From NCBI GenBank assembly GCA_044226015.1, contig JBGAHS010000001.1, positions 800,001 through 864,000 of the forward strand: a DNA stretch of 64,000 nt. The letters are read 5' to 3'. Shown piece by piece: positions 39,803 to 42,384 of this stretch. The stretch comes from Candidatus Obscuribacteraceae bacterium (GTDB lineage: Bacteria > Cyanobacteriota > Vampirovibrionia > Obscuribacterales > Obscuribacteraceae). The notes under the pieces were generated by a model. The model did not search any database and was not told the origin of the DNA. It saw nothing but the letters and a program-made list of their open reading frames with translations. The position numbers and the translations under genes are program-made. The first letter of the stretch is position 1; the number at the start of each line of letters is the position of its first letter.

Positions 39803-41023
39803 TTAGAAGCCGACGAACGGTGTTGCCACTGCTGCCGGTGTGGCGGCACCAAGCTTGCTCACCATGATTTCGGTAATGGCTTTGGATACTCTCTTAACTT
39901 GTTCTTGCTTAAGTTCAGGATACATCGGCAAGGACAATACTTGAGCTGCGAGTTTTTCTGAAATCGGGAAGTCGCCTTTGCTATATCCGAATTCTGCAAA
40001 AGCATCTTGCATATGCAGAGGTACAGGGTAATAGCACATGCTGCTGATTCCACGCTTATTGAGTTCTGCTCCCAATGCGTCACGCAGAGCTGCATCGTCA
40101 GCATGGTTGCTGCTGCCGCTGGAGACTTTTATCGTGTATTGGTGCCATACGTGAGTGTTGCCACTCATCACTGTTGGCAGAGTCACACCAGGACAGTGTT
40201 TTAGTTCTTCCTGATACCACTTCGCTACTTGATTGCGTTGAGTGTTCCAATCTGCCAGAAATGGCAGTTTGGCAAGCAATACTGCAGCTTGAATTTCATC
40301 TAAACGGCTGTTTCTACCAATTTCATCATGGTAGTAGCGTTTGCGCATGCCGTGAGCACGAATTGCGCGCAGCTTGTCTGCTAGCTCATCATCATTAGTA
40401 GTGATCATGCCAGCGTCACCTGCAGCTCCCAAGTTTTTTGTTGGATAGAAACTTATGCAAGCCATATCGCCTAAGCTGCCTGTTCGTTGCCCATTTTGAG
40501 TGGCACCGATCGCTTGCGCGTTGTCTTCAATAACTCTTACTCCATAACGAGTTGCGAGTTCGAGTATCTTTGCCATCGGGGCTGGCTGCCCATATAAGTG
40601 AACTGGCAATATTGCTTTCGTTTTCTTATTGAAGAGCTTTTCGATGTTATCCGGGTTCATGTTGAATGTGTTCGGATCTACATCAGTAAAAACTGGTTTT
40701 GCACCGCGGGTCGCAATCGCTTCTGCTGTAGCTGCAAAAGTGAATGGAGGTGTGATTACTTCATCTCCAGGACCAACTCCTGCTGCCCATAGTGCTAGCT
40801 CGAGAGCGTCAGTACCATTGGCCACCGCTATTGCGTGCTTAGCGCCGCAGAATTTGGCGATATCTTTCTCTAGCTGACTTACATATTGACCAAGAATATA
40901 GTGTCCGCTGCGCAATATATTGATGACTGTTTCTTCGAGCTGCGGACCGAACTGTTTATATTGTTCTTTGAGGTCGAGGATTTGAATTGGTTGGTTTGCA
41001 GTTTCTTCTACCAAGGTTTCCAC
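39803..41023 (-). CDS. DegT/DnrJ/EryC1/StrS sugar aminotransferase
   Basis: VHLYGQ, EDNAQ, SFYPTKNLG, NSRLDEIQAA. Confidence 0.95.
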   Translation of the reverse strand: METLVEETANQPIQILDLKEQYKQFGPQLEETVINILRSGHYILGQYVSQLEKDIAKFCGAKHAIAVANGTDALELALWAAGVGPGDEVITPPFTFAATAEAIATRGAKPVFTDVDPNTFNMNPDNIEKLFNKKTKAILPVHLYGQPAPMAKILELATRYGVRVIEDNAQAIGATQNGQRTGSLGDMACISFYPTKNLGAAGDAGMITTNDDELADKLRAIRAHGMRKRYYHDEIGRNSRLDEIQAAVLLAKLPFLADWNTQRNQVAKWYQEELKHCPGVTLPTVMSGNTHVWHQYTIKVSSGSSNHADDAALRDALGAELNKRGISSMCYYPVPLHMQDAFAEFGYSKGDFPISEKLAAQVLSLPMYPELKQEQVKRVSKAITEIMVSKLGAATPAAVATPFVGF

Positions 41024-41353
41024 TCCTGCCGGTCTTACTTGTCTCCTGACTCGAGGTTTCAGAGACGCTGCAAGTCTAGTACGGCAGTTGGCATGTCTCC
41101 AAGTAGCAGCTTATAAGGTTGGCAACTCCTAAGAATGTAAACAAGAACTTCATAGCGCTGCTGTCGCTTGACATGGTTGGCTGTTGCTTAAAGGGTGAGG
41201 GTTTGAGATTGCGGGTGTTGTCAGTGGAAAGAAATTGCTGTCGCACCTAAAAATAAACTTACAGCAGTTTGATGAAACAGTTTTTTATCAGTATCTCTTT
41301 GAAAGTATATCTGTATTATAGGCTTAAGATGGTCTTTGTTTAATCCTGGCTAC

Positions 41354-41743
41354 AAGTGATTCCGGCTTCGTCTACTTGCCACTTTATGACGGCAATGGCA
41401 GATGCGCTGTTCGGTTTTCTTCTAAGTTTACAGCGAACTATGGTGGCGTATTTGGTGGCAGGACTATGTGGGAAAGCAGCTGCAAAACTCAGTCTCTTTC
41501 TCTACAGTTTCAATCCTGCTTCAGTTTCGCTAAGACCTTCGCGCAGAGCCTAGCGCGAGAATCCTGAATTTCGCCGGCCGGATATCAAAGACCTGCTCTT
41601 CTAGCGGACCTTTGGAAAACGAGGGGGGGCTGCCATCCCCGACATGATTCGCCATTGGCGGTCACATCGGCCCTCGTTTCCAGATCCGCACTATTGGCCT
41701 GATCCAGAGATGACTGCATCAGCTTCGCTGACTGCAATCACTT
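41354..41743 (-). ncRNA. Candidate ~390-nt structured non-coding RNA or long leader of unknown class
   Basis: Begins just downstream of a TTGACA-17-CATACT promoter. Successive helices contain G-U pairs on the minus strand (gcggatct/aggtccgc, ggaaacgaggg/ccctcgttttcc, ccgatgtga/tcatgtcgg, gcaggatt/agtcctgc, ctgtagag/ttttgcag). No convincing ORF. Confidence 0.55.
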
Positions 41744-41745
41744 AA

Positions 41746-41774
41746 AGTATGCCATACAAATGTATGTTTGTCAA
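41746..41774 (-). promoter_or_regulatory. Sigma70-type promoter with palindromic operator in the spacer
   Basis: Minus strand TTGACA-aacatacatttgtatgg(17 nt)-CATACT, extended TG; CATACA-tt-TGTATG inverted repeat between -35 and -10. Confidence 0.75.
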
Positions 41775-41787
41775 TCAATTTATATAT

Positions 41788-41978
41788 TGGGTGGGGCGGC
41801 AGGGGGCCAGAACCGGAACCATGGGCGGGGCGGCACCGGATTCGAAACCGGAACCATGGGCGGGGCGGCACCGGATTCAGAACCGGAACCATGGGTGGGG
41901 CGGCACCAGATTCAGAACCGGAACCATGGGCGGGGCGGCACCAGATTCGAGACCGGAACCATGGGTGGGGCGGCACCG
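41788..41978. repeat. Tandem array of about 5.5 copies of a 35-bp G-rich unit
   Basis: Units start at 41811, 41846, 41881, 41916 and 41951 (last partial), plus a partial copy from 41788; consensus AACCGGAACCATGGGYGGGGCGGCACCRGATTCRR; no spacers. Confidence 0.95.
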
Positions 41979-42033: not shown

Positions 42034-42064
42034 AAAAGAAAAAGCCCCTCCGAAGAGGGGCTTT
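42034..42064 (-). terminator. Intrinsic terminator after the RHH gene
   Basis: aaagcccctc-ttcg-gaggggcttt followed by a U-tract on the minus strand. Confidence 0.9.
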
Positions 42065-42087: not shown

Positions 42088-42384
42088 TTACTTTCTCTTG
42101 CCGCCAGGAACAGCAACTGTTCTCGACAGAGCGTTCGTAACGAACAGATTGAGGCTGACGCCTTCTTTTTCAGCTCTGTCAACGAGTGCTTGGTGTAGAG
42201 AGCGGGGAAGACGAACTGTGAACTTACCGCTGTAATCAAGGTATTGTTCGTCCGAGCGTGGTGCGCGAGCTGGTGCTTTAGCCGGCTTTGGAGCTGGCTT
42301 ACGAGCTGGAACTGACTTTTTGAGAGCTGATTTGAGTTTTGCCGCTTTGCTAGCTGGCTTTTTTGCTTTAGCTTTTGTAGCCAT
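42088..42384 (-). CDS. HicB-type ribbon-helix-helix protein with histone-H1-like Lys/Ala/Pro N-terminal tail
   Basis: YSGKFTVRLPRSLHQALVDRAEKEGVSLNLFV is the HicB C-terminal RHH motif; AAGGAG RBS; own terminator. Confidence 0.88.
   Translation of the reverse strand: MATKAKAKKPASKAAKLKSALKKSVPARKPAPKPAKAPARAPRSDEQYLDYSGKFTVRLPRSLHQALVDRAEKEGVSLNLFVTNALSRTVAVPGGKRK

Follow-up and report, generated by a model that had tools for sequence, protein, structure and literature searches.

A dispersed family of structured RNAs behind a putative LexA-controlled promoter in Obscuribacteraceae

The window analyzed here is a 64,000-nucleotide stretch of the genome of a Candidatus Obscuribacteraceae bacterium, a non-photosynthetic relative of cyanobacteria. 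In the interval between two genes of the minus strand, a hicB-like gene and a gene for a DegT-family aminotransferase, it carries a promoter followed by a structured element. The hicB-like gene, which encodes a HicB-family DNA-binding domain and a lysine/alanine-rich N-terminus, also precedes degT in five congeners, and no HicA was seen. The features of the locus are listed below (copy counts refer to the ten copies of this genome and to the 20 copies of the genus, both described further on).

42088-42384, minus strand: hicB-like gene, upstream
42041..42064, minus strand: terminator-like hairpin of the hicB-like gene, predicted to insulate the element
41811..41978, no strand: 35-bp tandem repeat (4.8 copies), upstream of the element, outside the conserved unit and not found at the other nine copies
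41769..41774, minus strand: -35 hexamer TTGACA (TTGAC in 10/10 copies of this genome and 19/20 genus copies)
41753..41766, no strand: palindromic operator CATAC-N4-GTATG in the promoter spacer, a putative LexA (SOS) box
41746..41754, minus strand: extended -10 element TG-n-CATACT (hexamer positions A2 and T6 nearly constant over the 20 copies, its other positions variable)
Near 41740, minus strand: predicted start site
41711..41740, minus strand: 5' hairpin (sequence and length differ among copies, pairing kept)
41682..41689, minus strand: GCGGAUC followed by U-G-G, the 5' strand of the invariant core helix (whose first four pairs are the same in 20/20)
41614..41681, minus strand: upper rod with a three-way junction (in other genera, one hairpin takes the place of the junction)
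41639-41670, minus strand: covarying apical arm, part of the upper rod and junction
41626-41640, minus strand: GGGG/CCCC hairpin, part of the upper rod and junction
41602..41611, minus strand: 3' strand of the invariant helix, then a pyrimidine (41603) and A (41602), an end resembling a tRNA-Gly acceptor
41574..41581, no strand: self-complementary CCGGCCGG, 3' edge of the conserved unit (17/20 genus copies)
41354..41573, minus strand: non-conserved 3' stretch, probably outside the family unit
39803..41023, minus strand: DegT-family aminotransferase, a downstream neighbor only, with its own promoter-like stretch at ~41073-41102

A sequence-only reading of this interval had proposed a single structured RNA of ~390 nt behind a near-consensus minus-strand promoter. 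The promoter was confirmed (TTGACA at 41774-41769, N17, and CATACT at 41751-41746 with an extended -10 TG; score 10/12). Such a match alone is not significant, because three such promoter sites are present in a 3-kb stretch where 3.2 would be expected; what makes it significant is its conservation across copies. The helix arms that had been named lie where they were placed; all were looked up but the last hairpin, which is present in the minimum free energy fold. The 392-nt stretch folds better than shuffled sequences on the minus strand (z -3.57, 0/100), and an excess was seen on the plus strand too (z -2.96). The proposed length did not hold: the folding excess is confined to positions 41567-41742 (z -3.2, 0/100), and the remainder, 41354-41566, behaves like shuffled sequence (z -1.1, 14/100) and corresponds to nothing in the other nine copies. 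Neither did the pairing suggested between the 5' and 3' ends as a switch or closing helix, whose pair probability is at most 0.11 and whose forced conformer lies 3.6 kcal/mol above the minimum. The sequencing run of a second study spans the stretch, with three substitutions inside the element, which is therefore not an assembly artifact. The palindromic operator and the nine further copies were absent from the earlier account. GC-rich tandem repeats with unrelated units were also seen in intergenic regions, namely at 41811-41978 of the window, upstream at loci L032 and L267, and in the orthologous interval of the genome G006.

By using BLAST and nhmmer, we identified ten copies of the promoter and of the first ~170 nt of the element in this genome (G000), nine of them on six other contigs. 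The count was stable over four nhmmer rounds, and the same ten were recovered by a covariance model. The copies are 59-95% identical (mean 69%), and their neighbor genes are unrelated to one another. Among 104 family genomes, a model built from these ten copies (R1) found four copies in the genome G002 and six in G007, which together with the ten make up the 20 genus copies. A core model (R2) added short-apex forms in G025, G028, and G091, and a model built only from those three short forms (R3) added three copies in G087, one in G088, and two in G027; the weakest R3 matches (E 0.01-0.05) were accepted for their shared 3' motif and upstream box. Homology is reciprocal, as R3 recovers three of the six long G007 copies. 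The total stands at 29 copies in 9 of the 104 family genomes, in five genera; an R2 match in G120 was dropped, as it lies inside a gene. Because the model searches scored just 25-150 candidates per genome, their empty results mean "not found" rather than absence: in this sense, no copy was found by R2 in 120 genomes of the class from outside this family or by R1 in five other congeners. None was found in viral, phage, and plasmid collections. Exact-pattern scans returned 69 GTDB, 12 viral, and 56 metagenome loci, only four of which passed R1; these belong to one uncultured Ca. Obscuribacterales record that may repeat a counted genome, and they were left out of the counts.

Rfam 15 gave no gathering-level match at the window, at a set of 15 loci, or at one of nine loci; 18 matches with E up to 10 were returned for the element, none covering it as a family member. 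In agreement with the earlier reading, the element is not RNase P RNA, tmRNA, or SRP RNA, none of whose models matches at the locus and each of which was found elsewhere in the genome. No description of the family or of its box was found in the mainly open-access literature searched; an entry in a large motif table may exist.

The conserved unit consists, in order, of the 5' hairpin, a short closing helix, an internal loop, the invariant 7-bp helix (starting with base pairs G-C, C-G, G-C, and G-C), the upper rod, the apex, here a three-way junction, and a short conserved 3' flank; in this genus, it ends with CCGGCCGG. Pairs that change on both sides number 18 of 47 among the ten paralogs (reached in 0-1 of 500 shuffles) and 29 of 47 among the 20 genus copies (0/500), where 91% of cells are paired against 44-50% in slid controls, although kinship and the fitting of the 20-copy alignment to the model inflate such counts. 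In the 5' hairpin, all eight pairs change on both sides and 80% of cells are paired. Among the ten copies that took no part in building R1, pairing persists in 98 of 107 cells of the apical arm, and in 47 of these both sides have changed. In 18 of the 20 copies, the sense strand gives a better fold than its complement; this advantage and the frequent G-U pairs point to an RNA made from the promoter strand. Conserved bases fall mostly within helices. No ORF is common to the 20 copies, and the few hydrophobic ORFs occupy differing places, mostly without a ribosome site. Thus a real, uncatalogued RNA family is present. What stands of the undescribed structured RNA that had been proposed is its novelty with respect to Rfam, its covarying fold in related genomes, its strand bias, and its conserved promoter; instead of a single 390-nt RNA, it is a multicopy unit of ~170 nt.

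Several other likenesses were considered and rejected. A resemblance of the 3' part, noticed by eye, to what we take to be group I intron motifs has no Rfam support and is not conserved. A GGCC-loop kissing hairpin is not a general feature (P above 0.7 in no more than 5 of 19 copies), a CsrA-type GGA loop occurs in some copies and is missing in most copies of this genome and in the short forms, and a 3' guide after CCGGCCGG is contradicted by tails that, by eye, are alike among copies rather than suited to independent targets. A retron msr-msd was not indicated either, given two reverse transcriptase matches far from all copies and a 5'/3' pairing probability no higher than 0.11. Separately, a retron-like reverse transcriptase of 292 aa is encoded at L023:1046-3280, on C4 of this genome. 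Its gene has a gap of 320 nt upstream, directly follows an ORF resembling a LigD polymerase, and converges with a gene for an ADP-ribosylglycohydrolase; ku, preceded by the palindrome, lies ~4 kb upstream.

All 20 genus copies share one promoter layout, with the palindrome between the -35 and -10 elements. It is perfect in 7 of the 10 copies of this genome and in only one of the six G007 copies, where the boxes are mostly imperfect on the left. In this genome, whose only lexA gene lies at C1:697528-698214, the palindrome is also found 40 nt upstream of that gene and ahead of imuA-imuB-dnaE2, ssb, dinG, ku, and nrdB. Of the 104 family genomes, 56 contain the promoter pattern, against three control matches overall, and at the inspected loci of relatives the pattern lies mostly before imuA-imuB or dnaE2 and twice before umuD. 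Cassettes of imuA-imuB, dnaE2, and umuD are hallmark targets of LexA. A box matrix derived from 23 boxes of other genomes, itself seeded by a pattern from the RNA copies, ranked RNA copies first to third in this genome, and 7 of the 13 sites scoring at least 17 were RNA copies, beside ssb, imuA, and nrdB. The other intergenic matches lie at ssb, imuA-imuB-dnaE2, nrdB, dinG, ku, xseA, a radical-SAM gene, sbcC, and lexA, whose own box scores only 13.0; one RNA copy scores below 10.5. No clear box was seen at recA, which is apparently outside the candidate regulon.

Because CATAC-N4-GTATG precedes lexA as well as DNA-repair and mutagenesis genes, it is very likely the LexA box of this lineage, and the RNA family is likely under SOS control in this genus. 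Two observations bound this assignment. Phage contigs carry the same spacer palindrome before unrelated genes, so other repressors can use it. The LexA-type promoter is present in 22 of the 29 copies, and the seven that have no such box, all in the genera g51 and g21, indicate that SOS control is not universal: they (L343-L345, L347, L348, L350, and L352) carry TGCR-N7-YGCA instead, at a similar distance, 110-200 nt upstream of the 3' end of the core, a motif with one match in G000.

The copies of G000 form one clade (support 0.99), and none of the ten copies of G002 and G007 has flanks near a G000 copy. Orthologous gene pairs lie 620, 393, and 508 bp apart where the element is present and 48, 50, and ~50 bp apart, respectively, where it is missing; these three pairs are 340-570 bp closer in G000, which has no element there. 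The lack of synteny and these filled and empty sites indicate that copies are gained or lost at positions that differ from lineage to lineage. By rough count, the downstream gene is antisense to the element in about 20 of the 29 copies, and some copies leave less than 70 nt before the oncoming gene. By eye, we saw no terminal repeats, target duplication, sharp ends, or adjacent recombinase, transposase, or reverse transcriptase, and the empty sites are too diverged to align. In the genome G003, four copies (L220, L223, L224, and L326) of a second structured non-coding stretch lie behind the same LexA-type promoter. This stretch comprises a 5' hairpin and a long rod with a GGCC-loop hairpin as its cap, its copies are 85% alike (three aligned), and the three tested were unscored by R1 or R2; L220 shares an intergenic region with a G000 copy, in the opposite orientation. 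Together with the regulator swap in other genera, this second RNA suggests repeated recruitment.

The family might also be read as a selfish, non-autonomous mobile element with an SOS promoter, mobilized in trans, whose folded RNA or single-stranded DNA serves its own spread. The single clade, the unshared flanks, the filled and empty intervals, the patchy distribution over 9 of 104 genomes, and the frequent antisense placement, typical of tolerated insertion sites, all fit such an element. However, it would lack any visible mark of a transposition mechanism, its copies are old judging from their mean identity of 69%, its promoter lies upstream of the predicted start and would be lost by an RNA route, its LexA box is replaced by a different box in other genera, and viral, phage, and plasmid collections yielded no copy. 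We consider this explanation unlikely, although it survives better than the other alternatives.

The reading that we favor, with moderate confidence and from sequence evidence, is that of an SOS-induced, protein-binding non-coding RNA encoded in ten dispersed copies behind a promoter likely repressed by LexA and acting via its invariant helix. In this model, DNA damage would relieve LexA repression and lead to the synthesis of a ~170-nt RNA, which would bind a protein through the invariant 7-bp helix and the conserved 3' flank. The 5' hairpin and the apex, variable yet paired, would form a stabilizing scaffold for this protein handle, and the number of copies would raise the dose of RNA. Transcript ends, LexA binding, induction, and action through a protein are all inferred steps. 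Binding of a protein is favored because it is a helix and its flank that are fixed, rather than a loop, and because no sensible common mRNA target emerged.

The partner of such a protein-binding RNA may be a protein that reads tRNA-Gly acceptor ends, for which the RNA would serve as a decoy; this step is speculative and, taken alone, rather improbable. Among the 72 tRNAs of the comparison, GCGG together with U73 marks the four tRNA-Gly entries. tRNA-Gly was the best match for 25 of the 26 copies scored, with a median of 14/18 positions, three of the 29 being omitted for variant helices and three of those scored having been read from a mis-picked 5' strand. Random helices reach at least 14/18 in 4.6% of trials, in a test that is post hoc and applied to copies sharing one ancestor. 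According to a study of glycyl-tRNA synthetase (GlyRS), its determinants include G1-C72, C2-G71, U73, and a purine-pyrimidine pair 4-69, and the Lactiplantibacillus plantarum enzyme requires the whole L-shape (PMC10464925). The invariant helix has G1-C72, C2-G71, and a purine-pyrimidine 4-69. The base that follows it, at the position of 41603, is U in 18 of the 29 copies (all ten of this genome) and C in 11. Neither CCA after the helix nor an anticodon arm (C35/C36) was found, and no tRNA or tmRNA model scored. For all these reasons, namely the post hoc test, the kinship of the copies, the C found in place of U in 11 of them, and the missing CCA and anticodon, we regard the resemblance as a weak lead only. 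Expanded into a full scenario, it would make the family an SOS-induced mimic of the tRNA-Gly acceptor stem that titrates or baits proteins binding tRNA-Gly ends and so links DNA damage to translation. RNase P and RNase Z would release the helix, unless it is presented uncut, and the gene would also relocate between lineages and have swapped its regulator; we deem this scenario improbable as a whole. At C10:356412-356485, this genome encodes an unusual tRNA-Gly(UCC), possibly non-ribosomal, in which the D and T arms are altered; its first ten bases nearly equal the 5' strand of the RNA core.

Somewhat less probable still is a redundant family of base-pairing sRNAs that, through CCGGCCGG or a loop, would repress a shared mRNA, for example that of a division gene, during SOS. 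A precedent is DinR, which is LexA-controlled and represses ftsZ (PMC10907235). CCGGCCGG is moreover retained despite strong avoidance of GGCC, the most depleted 4-mer of this genome (O/E 0.29; GATC is less avoided, 0.68), and 12 of its 36 genomic occurrences fall in the ten copies; avoidance of GGCC and GATC suggests restriction or methylation pressure. However, a scan of duplexes between the exposed segments of the ten copies and 5,503 start regions gave only trivial CCGG-containing matches, and the mean ranks of ftsZ, lexA, and recA were 0.18, 0.30, and 0.55 in this crude scan, which ignores target accessibility. The 8-mer CCGGCCGG is also not kept in the short forms.

A structured mRNA of a type I toxin, like the LexA-controlled tisB or dinQ, would account for the multiple copies, the SOS box, and the long structured 5' region, all of which fit such loci. 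Against it, the copies have no shared small ORF, and the space before the oncoming gene is under 70 nt at several of them; we hold this explanation to be very unlikely. A promoter scan of the focal locus showed none facing the element within 800 nt. Least credible of all are the two identities suggested by the sequence-only reading, a cis-acting leader or riboswitch of the glycan operon and a divergent 6S RNA, which have in their favor the shared orientation with degT and the long irregular rod: the orthologous hicB-like/degT interval contains neither element nor box in 5/5 congeners, which rules out a conserved leader, 7 of the 10 copies run toward the 3' end of a convergent gene, the rod has no large central bubble, and the 6S ortholog sits elsewhere in the genome.

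These data suggest RNA as a main SOS output in this lineage, since an uncatalogued RNA holds 7 of the 13 best-scoring boxes of the genome. They also provide a candidate LexA box and regulon for Obscuribacterales, for which we found none in the earlier literature. The promoter, the fold, and the idea of a glycine mimic can each be tested in vitro, without culture of the host.

Structured RNAs of other kinds share single traits with the family. Like 6S RNA (RF00013), it has a long irregular duplex and a sigma70-type promoter; unlike it, it lacks the central bubble, carries a LexA box, and is multicopy. Rfam detects no 6S RNA in this genome, and in 27 of 41 family genomes it gives one weak match, a single one being above the Rfam cut-off; a profile of six weak matches (L129-L134) located the ortholog at C6:800541-800774 (minus strand; E 6e-33), and the 6S RNA of this family is, judging from the weak Rfam matches, divergent. 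Bacterial Y RNAs, which act with Ro60, likewise combine a conserved handle with a variable module. A Ro60-like gene missed by Pfam is present at C1:815103 (locus C1:812075-816860) and has its own small RNAs with a different handle; a Y RNA identity was rejected, as this locus has no box and its small RNAs are dissimilar to the family. The Pfam TROVE domain was found in 19 of the 104 genomes, and these 19 include just one of the nine positives. tmRNA and YrlA are examples of tRNA-like RNAs. With the tRNA-Gly acceptor stem itself, the family shares G1-C72, C2-G71, G3-C70, and G4-C69 in a 7-bp helix followed by U-G-G on its 5' strand and by a pyrimidine on its 3' strand, whereas its helix is internal and has neither CCA nor D, T, or anticodon arms.

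To our knowledge, the few RNAs known as direct LexA targets are toxin-antitoxin RNAs or single-copy pairing sRNAs. The type I toxin loci tisB/istR and dinQ/agrB have an SOS box and a structured transcript, as does this family, which differs by having no conserved peptide. 6C RNA carries two C-rich loops, which are missing here, and no Rfam match to 6C was obtained. The 6C RNA of Actinobacteria is likewise a stand-alone structured RNA tied to SOS; in the study cited, it is a single gene whose RNA rises about threefold without LexA (PMC5014011). Two RNAs of Mycobacterium tuberculosis are reported to lie at LexA peaks (PMC3381160). DinR of Klebsiella pneumoniae is also a non-coding RNA under a LexA box, described as a single-copy 3' fragment of the dinI mRNA that pairs with ftsZ via Hfq (PMC10907235). 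In contrast to DinR, the present RNA has its own promoter, up to ten copies, a covarying rod, and no predicted target. As far as these sources describe them, dispersal in up to ten covarying copies, each with its own boxed promoter, sets the family apart from the LexA-linked RNAs compared here.
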